DNA of 5,881 bases from a bacterium (GTDB taxonomy: Bacteria; Sysuimicrobiota; Sysuimicrobiia; Sysuimicrobiales; Humicultoraceae): the NCBI GenBank assembly GCA_041497675.1, contig JBGQGY010000174.1:1-5881 (forward strand). The letters are read 5' to 3'. The notes under the pieces are model-generated. The model made no database searches. It saw nothing but the letters and a program-made list of their open reading frames with translations, and was not told the origin of the DNA. The translations under genes and the position numbers were made by a program. The stretch's first letter is position 1; every line of letters starts with the position of its first letter. Below are positions 1 to 5,881 of this stretch, piece by piece.

Positions 1-793
1 CGTAGCCCGGGCCGACGTGAGCGTCGGTGATGTCGATGCTGCGTGCGTCCACAACGTCCGCCGGCACGCCGAGGATCCCGGCCGCGTCGCGGACCTGCGC
101 CGCCACGAGCCCCTGCAGGATCTGCGCCGGGGTATTGACGGACACGCCGAGGACGTGGGTCTCTACACCCGCCAGCCTGAGGCCGAGCAAGAGACCCGCC
201 TGTGTCGTACCGGAGCCGACAGCCAGGACAACGTGATCGGCCGGGGTCTGCCGTGCGCGCAGCTGCTCCTGCAGTTCGAAGGCCGCCGGGACGTAGCCGA
301 CGGAGGCCAGGCCGCTCGAGAATGTGGCTAGGTGGACGACGTACGGTCGACCACCCTGGCGGCGGACTCGGTCGGCGATCTCGTGCATCAGTCCAACAGT
401 TGCCGGTGCGTACGGATCATCGGTCTGCACGAAGTGCAGCTCAGCGTCGAAGATCCGCATGAGCAACAGGTTCCCTTGCGGCACCACATCGGGTCGCCCG
501 CGCACCACCAGCACCGGCTTCATCCCCACGCGCCGCGCGGCCGCGGAGGTCAGACGCAAGAAGTTGGATTGTGCGCCGGCGGTGGTAATGATTGTATCGG
601 CGCCTTGTGCGGCCGCGTCACCCAGCAGGAACTCCAGCTTGCGGACCTTGTTGCCGCCCAGCGCCAGGTCGGTCAAATCGTCGCGCTTCACCAGCAGCCG
701 CGCCACGCCCGCGGCCGCGGCCAGCCGCGGTGCGTCCTCGAGCGGGGTCGGGAGGCGCGCGAGCGAGACCCTCGGCAGACGGTCGAGGTTCAT
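1..793 (-). CDS. PLP-dependent enzyme, D-cysteine desulfhydrase / ACC deaminase family (fold type II); partial, 3' end runs off the left edge
   Basis: Hand-translated from ATG at 793 (overlaps the upstream TGA as ATGA, 790-793); open to base 1. Reads MNLDRLPRVSLARLPTPLEDAPRLAAAAGVARLLVKRDDLTDLALGGNKVRKLEFLLGDA...AGAQSNFLRLTSAAA...GNLLLMRIFDAE...VVLAVGSGTTQAGLLLG...VGPGY. The PTPL, KRDD..GGNKxRKLE (PLP Lys49, nt 647-649) and GSGTTxAG phosphate-binding motifs are characteristic of the family. It is missing from the ORF track, presumably because the stop lies outside the window. Confidence 0.93.
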   Translation of the reverse strand, partial: MNLDRLPRVSLARLPTPLEDAPRLAAAAGVARLLVKRDDLTDLALGGNKVRKLEFLLGDAAAQGADTIITTAGAQSNFLRLTSAAARRVGMKPVLVVRGRPDVVPQGNLLLMRIFDAELHFVQTDDPYAPATVGLMHEIADRVRRQGGRPYVVHLATFSSGLASVGYVPAAFELQEQLRARQTPADHVVLAVGSGTTQAGLLLGLRLAGVETHVLGVSVNTPAQILQGLVAAQVRDAAGILGVPADVVDARSIDITDAHVGPGY

Positions 794-2127
794 CGCGAGA
801 CCGGCGTGGGGGCCCACGCCGCATCGGCCAGCAGCGCGTCCACGAGCCGGTCGGACGCCCTGCGCACGAACCCGACGATCTCCCCCGGCGTCCGCGGATC
901 GGCCTCGTCGCGCCTGGGGTTGAAGACGCCGCTGGCGTAGTACTCGAGAAACGGCGAGATGCTTTTGTACGGATAGACGATGTAGACTTTCTTCCCCGTC
1001 GTGTGCGCGTGGATCATCTCCGCCAGCACACCAAACGACATCTGGCTCGTCGGGTAGAACACCACGTTCATGTCCGACTGATCGATCAGGCGGAGATCGC
1101 GCACCACGGTCGCGCGGCCCAGTTGCAGGCGGGTGTGGTCGTCGAGGCGCCGGCCCCACGCCCGCACCTTATCCAGCGACCCGGCCCAGGACAAGATCTC
1201 GGTTTTTTGCTCGTCCGAGAACTGGCGCTCGAACTCTTCCTCGCTCATCTTGGCGATCGTCGCCGCTTCCTCGTCTTTGACCGAGAGGGGGTCAAACACG
1301 ACGAAGTGGCGGCGCAGACGCTGGCCGAACTCTCGCGCCATCTCGATCAACGGCGCGTTCCCCTCGCGGCGCAGGTTCGTAATAGGATAGCCTATGTAGA
1401 TCTTGGGCCTTTTAAAGCAGATGAGGTCGAGCAGCGTCTGGACCGGTTCGTCGTGCGCGACCAGGTAGTGCGGCACCCGCTCGTAGGCGGCAAACATCTT
1501 GGAGATGAACACTTCCTGCTCTTGCCAGGCGATGAGCTCGCTGGTCTCGATCCTCCCGCGCCACTGGTCGGTCTCTTCGAGGCGGCGCTGGATCGCATAC
1601 ACGCTGTCGACAACGGTCGCATAAAAGATGCCCTCGGGACGCACGGGGGGCGCCAGACGCAGACCCGGCAGGGTCTCCTGCACTGCGTCGTCCACGGGCG
1701 GCATGCGGCGCCGGGTCTCGTCAAAGAGCAGTTTGAGATAGTGCGTATCCAACCCGGGGATCAGGTGGCCTTTCCACCAGAAGCAGGCGTGGGTGACCAG
1801 GATCGTGCAGAGGTCGGGGTCCCACAGGGCCGGGTCGTTGACCACTTCGGTGAAGGCGATCGCGCGCAACTCTTGCAGCGCTTCGGGCGCCATGTCCAGG
1901 ATCGTCTCGGTGCGCACCACCAACCCCAGGTCGGCCGCGCGCTGCAGCATGAGGCTCCCCATGTCGAGATAGCGGAGGCGCTTGATCGGCGACGTCCACC
2001 GCCCCTCGCGCTGTTCTTGAGCGATGCGACGGTTGCCCTCTTCGATCAGCCGAACGATGTAGCCCGGCCCGCCACCCGCCTCGCTCAGTTTGCCGCCCCC
2101 GGAGATACCGGTTGCAATCACGATCAT
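790..2127 (-). CDS. Two-domain protein: N-terminal AdkA-like P-loop NMP kinase domain (aa ~1-238) fused to a C-terminal nucleoside 2-deoxyribosyltransferase / NMP N-glycosidase-like domain (aa ~241-430)
   Basis: 445-aa ORF with a strong SD (GAGGTGA). N-terminus has VIATGISGGGK (Walker A-like), LDMGSLMLQRA, ILVTHAC..KGHLIPGLD, AIQRR and LIAWQEQE, paralleling archaeal adenylate kinase motifs (xNFGxxM, IxDTH, GYLPGLP, IxxRR, IxxHQ). C-terminus has KIYIGYPIT, VFDP, RDLRLIDQSD, SFGVLAEMIHAxxxGKKVY and SPF, matching the NDT/DNPH1 pattern Y...D..I..aD...SxGxxxE..A...gK.V. That the CDS is real is high confidence; its function is inferred. Confidence 0.8.
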   Translation of the reverse strand: MIVIATGISGGGKLSEAGGGPGYIVRLIEEGNRRIAQEQREGRWTSPIKRLRYLDMGSLMLQRAADLGLVVRTETILDMAPEALQELRAIAFTEVVNDPALWDPDLCTILVTHACFWWKGHLIPGLDTHYLKLLFDETRRRMPPVDDAVQETLPGLRLAPPVRPEGIFYATVVDSVYAIQRRLEETDQWRGRIETSELIAWQEQEVFISKMFAAYERVPHYLVAHDEPVQTLLDLICFKRPKIYIGYPITNLRREGNAPLIEMAREFGQRLRRHFVVFDPLSVKDEEAATIAKMSEEEFERQFSDEQKTEILSWAGSLDKVRAWGRRLDDHTRLQLGRATVVRDLRLIDQSDMNVVFYPTSQMSFGVLAEMIHAHTTGKKVYIVYPYKSISPFLEYYASGVFNPRRDEADPRTPGEIVGFVRRASDRLVDALLADAAWAPTPVSR

Positions 2128-2131
2128 GGTG

Positions 2132-2138
2132 TCACCTC
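2132..2138 (-). promoter_or_regulatory. Shine-Dalgarno site of the kinase/N-glycosidase gene
   Basis: Minus strand reads GAGGTGA-CACC-ATG; GAGGTGA is complementary to the 16S rRNA 3' end. Confidence 0.8.
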
Positions 2139-2147
2139 ATCCAAAAT

Positions 2148-2156
2148 ATCATAGCA
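2148..2156 (-). promoter_or_regulatory. Putative sigma70-type extended -10 promoter (TGCTATGAT) for the leftward unit
   Basis: Minus strand reads TG-C-TATGAT (TGn plus 5/6 match to TATAAT) in the only AT-rich patch of the intergenic region. There is no recognisable -35, consistent with an extended -10. The predicted start near 2140-2141 lies just ahead of the SD. Confidence 0.6.
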
Positions 2157-2218
2157 GACGCCACATCCTCCCGCGGGGCTCGCGGTGCGTGGGGGAACTG
2201 ACCCTCGTGCGGTGAAGG

Positions 2219-2243
2219 TAGGATACAAGTCGGAACGGAGGGG
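2219..2243 (+). promoter_or_regulatory. Possible -10 (TAGGAT, 2219-2224) and Shine-Dalgarno (GGAGGGG, 2237-2243) for the cupin-GT2 cassette
   Basis: GGAGGGG lies 5 nt before ATG 2249 and is a clear SD. TAGGAT is a 4/6 -10 match that keeps the conserved TA...T. The only -35 candidate (CTGACC, 2198-2203) has a poor 15-nt spacer, so the promoter part is weak. Confidence 0.5.
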
Positions 2244-2248
2244 AAACC

Positions 2249-2770
2249 ATGGCGACACCCGTTCAGGATAAGCAGACCGTAACCCCGGCGGGAGAAAGCA
2301 TTCAGCAGGTGCCCGCAGGAGTCACGTTCCACGACGTGATAACGCAAGTAGATGAACGCGGCATGGTCTGCGAGCTTTTCGATCCACGGTGGGGGTGGCA
2401 TAAAGATCCACTCGTTTTCGCCTACAGCTTTACCGTCCGACCTGGAATGATCAAAGGCTGGGGGATGCACAAGAAGCACGACGACCGCTACTTTATCCTT
2501 TTGGGGGAGATCGAGGTAGTCTTGTACGACGATCGGCCAGACTCGCCGGCTCGCGGGTTGATATCAACGGTCGTGCTTTCAGAATACCGGCGACGGCTGA
2601 TGAACATACCGGCAGGTGTGTGGCACGCGGATCGAAACATCGGGAGCAGGGATGCGGTACTGATCAATTTCCCGACCATTCCGTATGACCACGCCAATCC
2701 CGACAAGTATCGGCTGCCCTTGAATACTGACAAGATTCCGCACACGTTTGAGAATGCGCGCGGTGGGTAA
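2249..2770 (+). CDS. RmlC-like cupin (dTDP-4-dehydrorhamnose 3,5-epimerase family protein), non-canonical active site
   Basis: 173 aa with a good SD. Motifs DERGxxxE, PGMIKGW.MH, GEIEVVLYDDRPDSP and IPAGVWHA follow the RmlC-family pattern (DxRGxFxE, GvlRGlH, GxxxDVxVDxRxxSPT, IPxGxAHG). Confidence 0.85.
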   Translation: MATPVQDKQTVTPAGESIQQVPAGVTFHDVITQVDERGMVCELFDPRWGWHKDPLVFAYSFTVRPGMIKGWGMHKKHDDRYFILLGEIEVVLYDDRPDSPARGLISTVVLSEYRRRLMNIPAGVWHADRNIGSRDAVLINFPTIPYDHANPDKYRLPLNTDKIPHTFENARGG

Positions 2771-3728
2771 CCCACCCGAATTCAGTATTGTCCTCCCTAC
2801 GCACAACCGGGCCGATGTTCTGGTGTTTGCCATCCGATCCGTGCTGTGGCAGACCGTTCAGGACTTCGAGCTGCTCATTGTGGGGGATGGGTGTACAGAT
2901 CATACAGCTGATGTCGTCAACAGCTTTGCCGACCAGCGGATTCGGTGGTTCGATCTGCCCAAGGCGCCGCACTTTGGTTACGCGAATCGCAACGTCGCGC
3001 TTCGCGCGGCTCGGGGCGTGTGTATTGCGTATATGGCGCACGATGACCTGTGGGTGCCGGACCACCTGGAGTTGTTATCCTCTTGTCTCGACGAACATGA
3101 CACTGAGCTTGCCTACAGCCGTCCTTTGTGGGTGGAGCCCGACGGCGCGATCATGCCCGGGACCTTTAACCTAAACCACGCGGAAACGCTGGGGTTGTTT
3201 TTGGCCAGAAAGAGCAACCGCATTCCCTCCGGATGTGTTTTGCACCGCACGGAATGCTTTGCCAAATGCGGTTATTGGAATGAGACGTTATCTTCCGGTG
3301 GGGACTGGGACATGTGGGCCAGAATCATTGAGAGCGGAAAACAACGCGGCGTGGCTTATCTGGCCATACCCACCAACCTTCACTTTCGAGCCATCTGGCG
3401 CAGAGACGCCGACGTGTGGCCGCCCGAGTTGAGGGTGTGGAAGGCGCTGCATGCCGCAGAGCGCTTGATGCCTTCCGCGCTGAGGATTCCTGTCGCGACG
3501 GGTTTGACGGAGCAAGAAGCCGCCTGGAGGGTCATGTCCCTTGACGGGCAAAAATGGACGAGGGAGTTACGGGTCGCTGTTGACCAGGTCCTGGATTGGC
3601 GCGTTTGTCAAAGTGACGAATTGATGCACGAGCTACTTAAGCGACAATTTGGCCACAGTCCCTTCAGGCGGAAGCTGGTCCGGTGGCTCCGGGACACCAA
3701 ATGCCGTGTAGAGAGGGCTATGCCATAG
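2763..3728 (+). CDS. Glycosyltransferase family 2 (GT-A fold)
   Basis: Motifs FSIVLPTHNR, QTVQDFELLIVGDGCTD, RNVALRAARG..IAYMAHDDLW.PDHLE and GYWNE...GDWDMWARI are typical of GT2. The start is uncertain (TTG 2748, ATG 2754 or GTG 2763); all options overlap the cupin stop at 2768-2770. The C-terminal tail is basic (RRKLVRWLRDTKCR). Confidence 0.9.
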   Translation: MGNPPEFSIVLPTHNRADVLVFAIRSVLWQTVQDFELLIVGDGCTDHTADVVNSFADQRIRWFDLPKAPHFGYANRNVALRAARGVCIAYMAHDDLWVPDHLELLSSCLDEHDTELAYSRPLWVEPDGAIMPGTFNLNHAETLGLFLARKSNRIPSGCVLHRTECFAKCGYWNETLSSGGDWDMWARIIESGKQRGVAYLAIPTNLHFRAIWRRDADVWPPELRVWKALHAAERLMPSALRIPVATGLTEQEAAWRVMSLDGQKWTRELRVAVDQVLDWRVCQSDELMHELLKRQFGHSPFRRKLVRWLRDTKCRVERAMP

Positions 3729-3737
3729 ACGTCGGGA

Positions 3738-4493
3738 CTATCGAAACAGGTCCTCATCCTCAGGACGGACCAGATCCGCCGCCGGGCCCACCCCGGCGTA
3801 GTCTAGCCCGCGGATCAGCACCAACGGGGTCCCCTCTGCGGCCTGTCCCTGAAGGAGATTCGCCAGCGCCGCGCACTCGTCGGCGACAGCCTCGATCGAG
3901 ACACGCAGCACGTACCCGTACCGGTCCTCCTCGCCGATATACGATCGCAGCACGCGCAGCCCCGAGGCGCCGATCGCCACGCCCGTCGTGCCCTGCCGGA
4001 ATGGGCGGCCGTGGCTGTCGTTGACGATCACCGCCAGATCCACGCCAAACGTCTGACGCAGCCCCGCCCGGAGGCGATCGGCCGACGCATCGGGATCCCG
4101 GGGCAGCAGCGCGACGACGTCATCGCCAAGCCCGACGTTCGAGTGATCAACGCCGGCGTTGGCGCAGACGAATCCCAGCCGGTGCTCCGCGATGATGAGC
4201 CCCGGGCGCACCCGGCGGATCGCCTTCGACTCGCGCAGGATCACTTCGACCATCCGCGGATCCTTGTGCGCCTCCTCGGACAGGCGCACGGCCTCGGGTC
4301 CCGGCGTGATGGTGCGCAGATCCACCACGTGACCTTCAGCCTTGGAGACCACTTTGTGCGCGACAATGACCACGTCGCCTTCCTGCGGCACCAGCCCGGC
4401 GTCCCGCAGCGCAGCGCCGATCGCGCCGACCAGATCGTCGCCGGGTCTGATCTCCGGAAACGGCTCGGGAGCCCAGGCCGAGACGGTCTTCAT
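3738..4493 (-). CDS. cofE: Coenzyme F420-0:L-glutamate ligase (stand-alone CofE, 251 aa)
   Basis: The true start is ATG 4493 (MKTVSAW...), overlapping the npdG stop as ATGA (4490-4493); the 568-aa track ORF is over-extended. Motifs PEIRPGDDL, GDVVIVAHKVVSKAEG, GFVCANAGVDHSN, LLPRDPDASA, DSHGRPFRQG..GVAIG, ADE.A..ANL..GQ..EGTP.VLIRG and terminal EDLFR are hallmarks of CofE/FbiB-N. Confidence 0.96.
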   Translation of the reverse strand: MKTVSAWAPEPFPEIRPGDDLVGAIGAALRDAGLVPQEGDVVIVAHKVVSKAEGHVVDLRTITPGPEAVRLSEEAHKDPRMVEVILRESKAIRRVRPGLIIAEHRLGFVCANAGVDHSNVGLGDDVVALLPRDPDASADRLRAGLRQTFGVDLAVIVNDSHGRPFRQGTTGVAIGASGLRVLRSYIGEEDRYGYVLRVSIEAVADECAALANLLQGQAAEGTPLVLIRGLDYAGVGPAADLVRPEDEDLFR

Positions 4494-5137
4494 CGAGGCC
4501 GAGCGTCGGCGGGCAGGTGCGCAACGCGGATGCCCAGGTCGCGCCGCCGATACCGGATGTTCAGTCCGATAATCAGCACCGCCAGCCTCTCGATCGCCGC
4601 CGCGGCGTCCAGCCCGCCCGCATCGACACCACGGGCGCCGATCGCGTTCGACAGTTCGACCACCTGCGCGCGCGCCGCCGCGTCGTTCCCGCAGACCAAC
4701 ACGTCTTGATCGAGCAGTCGGGATGGATCGGCCAGCAGGCGCGCCGAGAGCGTGTGAAACGCGGCCACGACCCGGGCGTCGGGCGCCAGCGCTTGTGTTT
4801 CGGCCGCGGCCGATCCATCGGGCGGCGGGACGAATGCGCGCCCCTCTCCCATCGACACGGTGGCGTCCACGACGATGCGACCGGAGAGTTCCCCAGCCAC
4901 GGCCTTCACGAACTCTCCGTGCCCTTCGAGGGGCACGGCCAGGATCACAAGATCGGCGCGCCGGCACGCATCGCTGTTCCCCGCACCGGTCGCGTTGTGC
5001 AACTGCAACCGCTCGGCCGCCGCCTGCGCGCGGGCCGGGTCCCTCGATCCGATGATCACGTCGTACCCAGAGGCGCAGAGGCGGATGGCCAGTCCGTATC
5101 CCAGATTGCCGGTGCCGCCGAGGATCGCGATACGCAT
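4490..5137 (-). CDS. npdG: NADPH-dependent F420 reductase (F420H2:NADP+ oxidoreductase, Fno)
   Basis: 215 aa. Rossmann motif MRIAILGGTGNLGYGLAIRL, NADP-specific IIGSRDPARA, VILAVP, GSAA, VVAAFHTLSA, DVLVCGND and GVDAGGL..A..IE...LIIGLN match NpdG. It is adjacent to cofE. Confidence 0.93.
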   Translation of the reverse strand: MRIAILGGTGNLGYGLAIRLCASGYDVIIGSRDPARAQAAAERLQLHNATGAGNSDACRRADLVILAVPLEGHGEFVKAVAGELSGRIVVDATVSMGEGRAFVPPPDGSAAAETQALAPDARVVAAFHTLSARLLADPSRLLDQDVLVCGNDAAARAQVVELSNAIGARGVDAGGLDAAAAIERLAVLIIGLNIRYRRRDLGIRVAHLPADARPR

Positions 5138-5881
5138 CAGGCCGCACGCTCTGGGCCGGCGACGGCCAGCGCGTACGCGTCGGCCGGAAAGCGCCGCATC
5201 GCCCGCGCGATGTCGTCGTGTCCCACGCCCTGGATGATGGCCGGATAGCGTTCGAGGTAGTCGAGGCCGAGCCCGTGCAGTTCGATGTCCGCGAGCATCT
5301 GCGCCACGCCCTGGTTGGTTTCCAATCGCACCGCGAGGGACCCGACGAGAAAGGTCCGCGCATCAGCCAGCTCTTCGACGCGGGGACCGTCACGCTGCAG
5401 CGTGCGAATTTCGTGCAGGATCGCTTCGGCGGCGCGCTCGACATTCGCCGGGTTCACCCCGGCTTTGACCCACCACGGGCCCGCGAGCAACCCGGCGCGC
5501 AGATCGCTAAACGCGTAGTACGCCATCCCCTGACGCTCGCGGACGTTCTCGCCGACCCGACCCATCAACCCCAACTGACCGAGCAGCAGGTTCGTCACCA
5601 TCGTCGCGTAGTACTCCGGATCCCCCCGCCGGATGCCCGGCGCGCCGAGCACCAGATCGGACTGCGACTTCCCCGGGACCGCGATGTCCCGTCGCACCGG
5701 CCGGCCGAGCGGCCGCGGCTCGGGGAGTGCCGGCAACTTAAAACCATCCCCAGCCGGCCACGCCCCAAAGGCCTTCGCCACCTGCTCAACGGTGGCACCC
5801 GCGCTGATGTCACCGACGATCGCGAGCAATGTCACGCCCGCGTGCACGTGGCGCGCATGGAACGCCCGCAGATCGTCAGGC
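5137..5881 (-). CDS. M16 (pitrilysin/insulinase) family peptidase, C-terminal part; partial, 5' end beyond the right edge
   Basis: The frame is open to the window edge (PDDLRAFHARHVHAGVTLLAIVGDI...). QSDLVLG, NLLLG..GLMGR...VRERQGMAYYAFS (R/Y pair) and ELADARTFLVGS...LET are M16_C motifs. The stop overlaps the npdG start (TGATG, 5139-5135). The HxxEH zinc motif region is outside the window, so catalytic activity cannot be judged. Confidence 0.92.
   Translation of the reverse strand, partial: PDDLRAFHARHVHAGVTLLAIVGDISAGATVEQVAKAFGAWPAGDGFKLPALPEPRPLGRPVRRDIAVPGKSQSDLVLGAPGIRRGDPEYYATMVTNLLLGQLGLMGRVGENVRERQGMAYYAFSDLRAGLLAGPWWVKAGVNPANVERAAEAILHEIRTLQRDGPRVEELADARTFLVGSLAVRLETNQGVAQMLADIELHGLGLDYLERYPAIIQGVGHDDIARAMRRFPADAYALAVAGPERAA

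Follow-up and report, generated by a model that had tools for sequence, protein, structure and literature searches.

The window analysed here, 5,881 nt in length, comprises positions 1 to 5,881 of contig JBGQGY010000174.1 (GCA_041497675.1), and all coordinates given below are window positions. Its subject is a gene on the reverse strand (790..2127), a single open reading frame (ORF) of 445 codons followed by a TGA stop (790-792), which encodes an N-terminal domain derived from archaeal adenylate kinase (AdkA) and a C-terminal domain of the DNPH1/MilB N-glycosidase type, belonging to the nucleoside 2-deoxyribosyltransferase (NDT) superfamily. The start codon is the ATG at 2125-2127 of the same strand, the N-terminus MIVIATG is common to the orthologues, and a Shine-Dalgarno-like GAGG can be read 8-11 nt upstream of the ATG (2135..2138, reverse strand). 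A protein search with the product matched 101 proteins (E<=1e-3), one of them a JGI entry of 445 aa that is identical to it and is called 'adenylate kinase'. In an exhaustive HMMER scan over clusters at 50% identity, 443 representatives had E<=1e-3; for 195 the value was <=1e-10 and for 37 it was <=1e-30. Since the homologues and the cluster representatives found at E<=1e-3 are this many, the gene is real. A scan of genomes, one per species, matched 197 stretches, 107 of which code for relatives; from these the best 80 were taken as loci L001-L080. Antisense to the target runs a 520-aa ORF (592-2154, forward strand), probably a by-product of the high GC content. The Rfam and tRNA scans of the window gave no match.

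With the window protein as a single query, Pfam returned Nuc_deoxyrib_tr at aa 335-385 (E=0.024) and AAA_17 at aa 51-132 (E=0.052), both under the curated cut-offs, NCBIfam returned the archaeal adenylate kinase model PRK04040 over aa 50-132 only (E=0.03; 13.8 bits vs the cut-off of 155), and the PDB search gave the adenylate kinase 6ln3 at E=0.57. A family alignment of 150 sequences, called A3 here, was the source of the residue counts given below, of a family profile and of an AlphaFold model. Searched against the PDB, the profile matched archaeal AdkA structures (six archaeal adenylate kinase sequences) at E=6.7e-21 (6ln3) to 1.5e-15 and the cytidine monophosphate (CMP) N-glycosidase MilB (4jen) at E=0.003. 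The model of the whole protein had a pLDDT of 93.7 and a pTM of 0.92. In Foldseek, aa 1-238 matched archaeal trimeric adenylate kinases at E ~1e-8 with a target TM score of 0.68-0.78 (6pk5, 6ln3 and 6pjw: E ~1e-8, TM 0.70-0.78), and the C-terminal half of the full-length model matched human DNPH1 with a target TM of 0.66-0.68. The C-terminal domain modelled alone had a pLDDT of 91.8; its Foldseek ranks 1-11 were DNPH1 or MilB, followed by NDTs, and the listed ranks 1-43 all belonged to the NDT superfamily. The target is a fusion of an AdkA-homologous domain and a DNPH1/MilB-fold domain. Profile, fold and conservation agree here with a preliminary description, made from the letters of the sequence alone, which had recognised both motif sets in one 445-aa ORF, had predicted a Glu nucleophile for the NDT-like part and had set the junction at about aa 238-241; in the model a helix (229-237) is followed there by a strand (242-246). 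A homodimer prediction with two full-length copies and A3 scored 0.34 against a mark of 0.42, the controls being at 0.00.

The N-terminal domain (aa 1-238; 1414..2127, reverse strand), delimited by the family profile against the PDB and by Foldseek, contains a glycine-rich phosphate loop, T6-G-I-S-G-G-G-K13 (2089..2112, reverse strand), recognised by column conservation: T6 is found in 121, G7 in 129, S9 in 110 and G10 in 127 of the 150 sequences. His113 (1789..1791, reverse strand) lies in a THA motif which aligns with the THA of the AdkA chains, and is kept in 131/150; the active-site His is described as conserved in archaeal adenylate kinases and as their hallmark, H85 in OdinAK (PMC9635829). 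Judged from these alignments, the domain descends from archaeal adenylate kinase. The Walker-A pattern G-x-P-G-x-G-K-[ST]-T is not matched, and the family loop reads T-G-[IV]-S-G-x-G-[RK]. Position 13, that of the Walker-A Lys, is occupied by Arg in 76 sequences, by Lys in 40 and by neither in 34, 8 of these being gaps, while position 14 is K, I, L, D, R or V and never predominantly Ser/Thr. The clade of the window includes one K-to-R switch, for L003, L004 and L008 have Arg at position 13 and their relatives Lys. K13 and E370 stand where the preliminary description had placed them, but with Arg at position 13 almost twice as often as Lys (76/150 vs 40/150) the K13A variant that it proposed as a control is weaker than was assumed. 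Against AdkA the HMMER alignments extend no further than the edge of the arginine-rich LID or slightly into it, and in this region R182 is kept in 82/150, R190 in 37/150 and R192 in 30/150. At the LID position the window's clade has a specific insertion of 27 aa (aa 137-163; 1639..1719, reverse strand), recognised by at least 80% gaps across the 145 non-Armatimonadota rows of the alignment and by lower model confidence (pLDDT blocks of 75, 65 and 84). There are 12 columns of at least 80% conservation in the N-terminal and 22 in the C-terminal domain, and by this measure both domains are under constraint. With a variable residue at position 13 and no Ser/Thr behind it, the N-terminal domain is more likely a nucleotide- or phosphate-binding module, regulatory in its predicted role, than a classic kinase.

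The same residues bear on the question whether the protein is a true bifunctional enzyme, in which an active AdkA-like phosphotransferase and the glycosidase or transferase domain would catalyse successive steps. Two versions were considered: either (d)NDP + ADP would give (d)NMP + ATP and the (deoxy)nucleoside monophosphate would then be cleaved, or the base of a 2'-deoxynucleoside 5'-monophosphate (dNMP) would be swapped and the new dNMP phosphorylated to dNDP, a deoxynucleotide salvage route. Among the residues of the N-terminal domain, those of the glycine loop, the His and several more are strongly conserved, and two AdkA-like domains are present in the 606-aa forms described below. The loss of the Lys is in itself no proof of lost activity, because in the alignments the active adenylate kinases of Methanococcus have Gly in place of the Walker Lys. 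Architectures in which a deoxynucleoside kinase (dNK), a thymidylate kinase or KTI12 stands with an NDT domain recur in an ESM Atlas feature search (0.80-0.86, to be taken as leads only), and DmtZ, a DNPH1-like enzyme, can transfer deoxyribose 5-phosphate to a base (PMC12884076). However, Lys and Arg interchange at the catalytic position of the phosphate loop, which in 34/150 has neither, the Ser/Thr metal ligand is missing after position 13, the AdkA alignments stop before the arginine-rich LID, of which only R182 is moderately kept, and, with one dNMP as substrate for both, kinase and glycosidase would be in competition. Coupled catalysis by the two domains therefore appears doubtful, and a binding, regulatory N-terminal domain is the preferred reading.

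The C-terminal domain (aa 239-445; 793..1413, reverse strand) was assigned by Foldseek and by PF05014. At its beginning stands Tyr244 (1396..1398, reverse strand), the predicted Tyr of the catalytic triad and selector for 2'-deoxy substrates, present in 150/150 sequences. The predicted triad Asp is Asp344 (1096..1098, reverse strand; 148/150), and the R-D344 pair lies opposite the Asp of the DNPH1 'EQD' and that of MilB in the HMMER alignment. The predicted nucleophile, Glu370 (148/150), closes the motif S364-F-G-V-L-A-E370 (1018..1038, reverse strand), in which S364 is kept in 138, G366 in 149 and the Val in 134 of the 150 sequences; S364-x-G-V-x-x-E370 aligns with S-L-G-V-G-Y-E of DNPH1 and with S-P-G-T-H-I-E of MilB. 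A further near-invariant motif is S391-P-F393 (949..957, reverse strand; S 128, P 143 and F 140 of 150). Tyr244 lies within the first strand of the domain (242-246 in the AlphaFold model), and the PF05014 match in the C-terminal domains of L045 and L074 starts at the invariant Tyr, at profile position 2; this position fits the Tyr of the triad, Y24 of DNPH1 and Y7 of NDT. The titles of PDB entries name the DNPH1 variants Y24F and D80A, the NDT variant Y7F/D72N and the MilB variant E103A. PF05014 is matched at E<=0.01 by 30 of the 31 C-terminal domains from the genome loci (best E 3.6e-7), and by the window protein with 15.2-17.4 bits against a gathering cut-off of 28.8. When the profile of the C-terminal domain was searched against the PDB, MilB (4jen) was found at E=0.028 and DNPH1 at E ~1.

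These residues allow a prediction of the substrate. A Ser, and not Asp, six residues before the Glu (S364 here) we take to be the mark of an enzyme that accepts a 5'-phosphate. With an invariant Tyr and a Ser-x-Gly-Val-x-x-Glu motif like that of DNPH1, the enzyme most likely acts on a dNMP. Tyr as opposed to Phe beside the catalytic Glu is thought to set dNMP or nucleoside monophosphate (NMP) specificity, as stated in PMC7308715, and the triad Tyr of the NDT superfamily is said to exclude ribosylated substrates in PMC12884076. A different proposal would be a nucleosidase for AMP or another ribonucleotide, gated by the adenylate energy charge as a functional counterpart of the bacterial AMP nucleosidase (Amn), with the AdkA-like domain sensing ATP, ADP or AMP. 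The AdkA ancestry of such a sensor, the presence of the CMP N-glycosidase MilB among the best fold and profile matches and the housekeeping contexts of the genes would all agree with it. On the other hand Tyr244 is the same in every sequence of A3, the ribo-specific relatives have Phe at that site (PMC7308715), and the informative neighbours described below are deoxynucleotide genes. We regard a ribonucleotide-specific enzyme as improbable, and a deoxynucleotide substrate is assumed in what follows.

Among the best 80 loci 27 belong to Armatimonadota/Candidatus Sysuimicrobiota, their products being 67-89% identical to the window protein. The remaining ones come from Bacillota, Chloroflexota, three further bacteria, Thermofilaceae and other Thermoproteota, Nitrososphaerota and one Bathyarchaeia. 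A quick maximum-likelihood tree of 80 rows was made, from which L027 was left out as truncated. It had one change for each phylum-level group and two each for Thermofilaceae and Nitrososphaerota, and the window was the sister of L001. Three metagenome-assembled genomes of Thermofilaceae have two paralogues of the family each, which fall in separate clades (L035/L043, L042/L048 and L053/L051). The contig of L034 is labelled Betaproteobacteria, yet it lies inside the Bacillota clade and has the Bacillota gene order; it is probably mis-binned.

Several architectural variants were found. Forms of about 606 aa (P0143, P0078, P0079, P0081, P0089, P0144, P0160 and P0169 among the variants) have a duplicated AdkA-like domain before the NDT-like one, the P0240 cluster has an extra C-terminal NUDIX domain, and the P0220 cluster has a ComEA-type helix-hairpin-helix insert within the C-terminal domain. 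Shorter forms gave 15 matches, nearly all on contigs of 1-5 kb; as likely fragments they do not speak for the existence of stand-alone domains. The P0220 insert, of a DNA-binding kind, would suit an enzyme that works on a nucleic-acid end or on a larger nucleotide conjugate, one nucleotide being held by the AdkA-like domain while the NDT-like domain removes the base; endonuclease III is encoded directly upstream of the family gene in L065, and AdkA binds bisubstrate analogues such as Ap5A, as PDB titles indicate. This support comes from a single variant cluster and a single locus, whereas the motifs of the C-terminal domain match those of the mononucleotide enzymes DNPH1 and MilB and no nucleic-acid-binding domain was detected in the other 149 sequences of the alignment. 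Such a substrate is thus highly unlikely, and we keep to a mononucleotide enzyme.

In present annotation the genes of the family go by 'adenylate kinase', 'AAA family ATPase' or 'hypothetical'. WP_011752112.1, the member from Thermofilum pendens, has the second of these names, which bears out the statement in the preliminary description that similarly built proteins are annotated only generically as ATPases. That description knew of no biochemical characterisation, and likewise our literature search turned up no characterised member, nor a paper on the AdkA + DNPH1-like architecture or on the T. pendens accession. PHROGs contained no family for P0001. Two known enzyme folds are joined here in a genuine and widely distributed family that is as yet uncharacterised.

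The target follows a conserved series of genes in the window's clade: M16 peptidases, then an F420-dependent NADP oxidoreductase, CofE and, in some loci, a gene of the enolase superfamily; the corresponding part of the window is 3741-5880 on the reverse strand. CofE lies upstream on the same strand in 25 of the 28 loci of the clade, often at a distance of 13-50 nt, and a DRG/Obg-type GTPase gene lies downstream of the target in 16 of the 28. A mechanistic link with F420 was considered and dropped, the adjacency of CofE being confined to the window's clade and found in none of the others; the placement of the F420 genes might still reflect a further link with cofactor metabolism in this clade. 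In the CSP1-3 genome of L015 a MazF/PemK toxin gene (3733-4053 of that locus) is located between the M16 peptidase and CofE genes.

The window itself departs from this order by a block of 1.6 kb (2139-3739) between CofE and the target, with genes on the opposite strand: a cupin gene (2249-2770, forward strand) and a GT2 gene (2748-3728, forward strand). The GC content of the block is 0.56-0.59, that of the flanks 0.66-0.71. L001 lacks the block, and its corresponding CofE and target flanks are 22 nt apart. Positions 3048-3646 of the window share 95% identity with another site, at the L001 contig end, as against only 78-81% for the flanks; the block may accordingly have come from a recent transfer or a rearrangement, or be a chimera of the assembly.

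Downstream of the target a gene for a pyridoxal 5'-phosphate (PLP)-dependent enzyme occupies positions 2-793 of the reverse strand; its best matches were XcbE, CuyA and the D-cysteine desulfhydrase family, all under the cut-off. Its start overlaps the stop of the target in an ATGA (790..793, reverse strand; read from the sequence), and the arrangement recurs in L001, with an overlap of 3 nt. The PLP gene is found downstream only in L001, L002 and, 5 kb off, L020. A functional link with this PALP-type gene was therefore rejected, and its position is taken as local synteny.

Neighbouring genes were annotated in 17 loci and in 29 more, with 78 of 112 candidate ORFs annotated in the second set, and most were ribosomal, tRNA, central-metabolism, cofactor or transport genes. 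Genes of nucleotide metabolism occur in a minority of the contexts. In L074 (6971-8237), L078 and L079 the family gene overlaps a downstream gene resembling dNMP kinases (PF21448, E=1e-12), which is followed by a dCMP deaminase gene on the same strand, and the arrangement looks like an operon. In L057 (1118-5735) and L069 (1104-5743), both from Nitrososphaerota, a class II ribonucleotide reductase gene and an NrdD-like gene fused to a helix-turn-helix domain stand beside the family gene, the NrdD-like gene being divergent and 258-266 nt upstream. A PnrA-like nucleoside-binding ABC transporter is encoded directly upstream in L080, and SurE and TatD are encoded within 3 kb in L035. In Bacillota a protein of the alkaline-phosphatase superfamily (Phosphodiest) is encoded upstream in 13/13 loci. 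This theme gives weak support for a role in deoxynucleotide metabolism.

Other neighbours were followed without yielding a function. In 16 Thermofilaceae/Bathyarchaeia loci (for instance L035, 5580-5840, reverse strand, and L049, 5622-5906, reverse strand) a divergent gene with a product of 74-97 aa is found upstream of paralogue A at a distance of 76-167 nt; by profile this protein has a glutaredoxin fold (Grx3 E=1.2e-4, NrdH E=0.01), but an NrdH-like role is unsupported since the CxxC is missing in most copies. Upstream of paralogue B of Thermofilaceae, at a distance of 21-45 nt, stands a radical-SAM activase-like gene; its best match, NrdG2 at E=1.3e-7, was far under the cut-off and too weak to identify it as a ribonucleotide reductase activase. 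A RimO/MiaB-type methylthiotransferase gene, present 0.9-5 kb off in 11/81 loci of four groups, was too loose an association to interpret, and the largest cluster of apparently shared ORFs in an all-vs-all clustering was an artefact of antisense ORFs.

The preliminary description had also considered a nucleotide-depleting defence function. In such an anti-phage system the kinase-like domain would sense a phage-derived nucleotide and the NDT-like domain would deplete nucleotides. Retrons with NDT effectors are known. A review (PMC9503650) describes domains of the NDT/DrHyd superfamily as effectors of several defence systems. However, PADLOC, in a version from 2023 that predates newer systems, matched 0 families, and tblastn searches of 50,697 phage and 72,556 plasmid records with P0001 and P0068 came back empty. 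The MazF gene of L015 is the sole defence or toxin-antitoxin type gene among the annotated neighbours, synteny within the window's clade is stable, and the clades follow the phyla. Because of the PADLOC result, the housekeeping neighbours, the lack of phage or plasmid copies and the phylum-wise clades, a housekeeping function is preferred; the defence role is not supported, and we consider it very improbable.

Taken together, the data point to a cytoplasmic housekeeping enzyme of the nucleotide pool, an active dNMP N-glycosidase, or possibly a deoxyribose-5-phosphate transferase, joined to a nucleotide-binding domain of AdkA descent. We give this reading a probability of about 0.5; it is from homology and context that we infer the substrate, the activity, the role of the N-terminal domain and the physiological role, which may be dNMP catabolism, sanitation or salvage. 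In the proposed mechanism Glu370 would attack C1' of the sugar, with Tyr244 positioning and Asp344 assisting, and free base and (deoxy)ribose 5-phosphate would result; in the alternative, another base might receive the sugar phosphate. The N-terminal domain, which keeps the phosphate-binding loop and the His while lacking a fixed Walker-A Lys, the adjacent Ser/Thr and apparently most of the LID arginines, would bind a nucleotide, either as an allosteric signal of the state of the pool or of energy or in order to hold the substrate, and is unlikely to be an efficient kinase.

Several observations weigh against this interpretation. The F420 genes directly before the target in the window's clade are not accounted for by a dNMP hydrolase. 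For the window protein every match in Pfam and NCBIfam was under the curated cut-off, and 14 C-terminal domains scored singly against PF05014 reached at most 26.7 bits where 28.8 are needed. The equivalence of Y244 and DNPH1 Y24 is a proposed one, drawn from profile coordinates and strand position. The N-terminal domain may yet be a kinase: position 13 (K/R) is always positively charged in the genome-derived set, and the Methanococcus enzymes are active with Gly at this place. The nucleotide-themed neighbours belong to a minority of about a dozen heterogeneous synteny contexts, and no neighbour was common across phyla in the all-vs-all clustering of the ORFs of the 80 loci and the window.

A bolder proposal is that the protein is a nucleotide-gated enzyme which destroys dNMPs or swaps their bases, the AdkA-derived domain reading the adenylate or deoxynucleoside triphosphate (dNTP) state and turning the DNPH1-like domain on or off, or else phosphorylating the product of the transfer of deoxyribose 5-phosphate. 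We hold it only as a tentative suggestion. If true, it would mean a regulated clearing of damaged dNMPs, or a way to make deoxynucleotides from free bases without phosphoribosyl pyrophosphate or ribonucleotide reductase. The two functions first suggested for this gene besides defence, the sanitising or salvage of nucleotides and a nucleotide-gated hydrolase, both remain viable.

DNPH1-type dNMP hydrolases are well studied in mammals, where they clear hydroxymethyl-dUMP, and DNPH1 is a drug target, as judged from the many inhibitor complexes among the Foldseek matches. Their prokaryotic counterparts and the regulation of these are barely known. The present family spans archaea and at least three bacterial phyla, and many of its members come from hot environments. 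Were the enzyme deoxy-specific and controlled by nucleotides, it would fill a gap in the disposal, sanitation and recycling of deoxynucleotides in these organisms, and it could be a source of thermostable enzymes for the synthesis of nucleotide analogues. Were it merely a constitutive dNMP hydrolase with a degenerate appendage, the result would be a useful correction of the annotation.

Comparison with known systems places the protein between several enzyme groups. With AdkA (6ln3, 1nks, 6pk5 and 7owe) it has homology over ~140 residues (E=6.7e-21), the fold (TM 0.68-0.78), the active-site His in its THA motif and the G-x-x-G-x-G loop in common. It differs from AdkA in the varying residue at the Walker-A Lys position and the absence of a Ser/Thr behind it, and the alignments do not carry through the arginine-rich LID; moreover, the domain is fused to a second one and reaches 13.8 with the PRK04040 equivalog, the cut-off of which is 155.

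DNPH1/Rcl, the 2'-deoxynucleoside 5'-phosphate N-hydrolase of human and rat, gave the best Foldseek matches of the C-terminal domain (E=1e-4, target TM 0.60-0.69), and the Asp, the S-x-G-V-x-x-E motif and the Tyr at the start of strand 1 are common to both. DNPH1, however, is a single-domain protein of ~130-150 aa, while the family domain stands behind the AdkA-like one, has a helical insert of ~50 aa that separates strand 2 from the Asp helix, and bears the SPF motif. The sequence similarity of the two is marginal (profile E ~1), and the activity of the family is a predicted one.

MilB and BcmB, N-glycosidases of CMP and hydroxymethyl-CMP, resemble the C-terminal domain in that MilB (4jen) is its best profile match (E=0.003 with the full profile, 0.028 with the C-terminal domain), and an S-P-G motif before the Glu was counted as common to both. 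They use ribonucleotides and have Phe where the family has the invariant Tyr, according to PMC7308715, and they sit in antibiotic-biosynthesis clusters, which the target gene does not.

The architectures dNK+NDT, thymidylate kinase+NDT and KTI12/AAA_33+NDT likewise place a nucleoside or nucleotide kinase fold before an NDT-type domain (ESM Atlas features, 0.80-0.86, leads only). Their kinases belong to different families, and the likeness is one suggested by the feature search; in the literature search no characterisation of these kinase + NDT architectures was found either.

The phage protein DutZ-DmtZ of PurZ0 phages offers a further parallel, described here from PMC12884076. Its partner domain is a dUTPase-like pyrophosphatase, it is phage-encoded and it serves Z-DNA synthesis, in all of which it is unlike the present family; no sequence relationship between the two was found. 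Like the target, however, it joins a DNPH1-like domain to another nucleotide-handling domain and acts on dNMPs, and its Tyr/Asn(Asp)/Glu triad is proven by mutagenesis (PMC12884076). There the path leads from dNTP to dNMP to base: the pyrophosphatase supplies dAMP to the DNPH1-like domain, which hydrolyses it or moves the sugar phosphate to another base (PMC12884076). Within the family studied here, this phage fusion is paralleled by the NUDIX fusion of the P0240 cluster.

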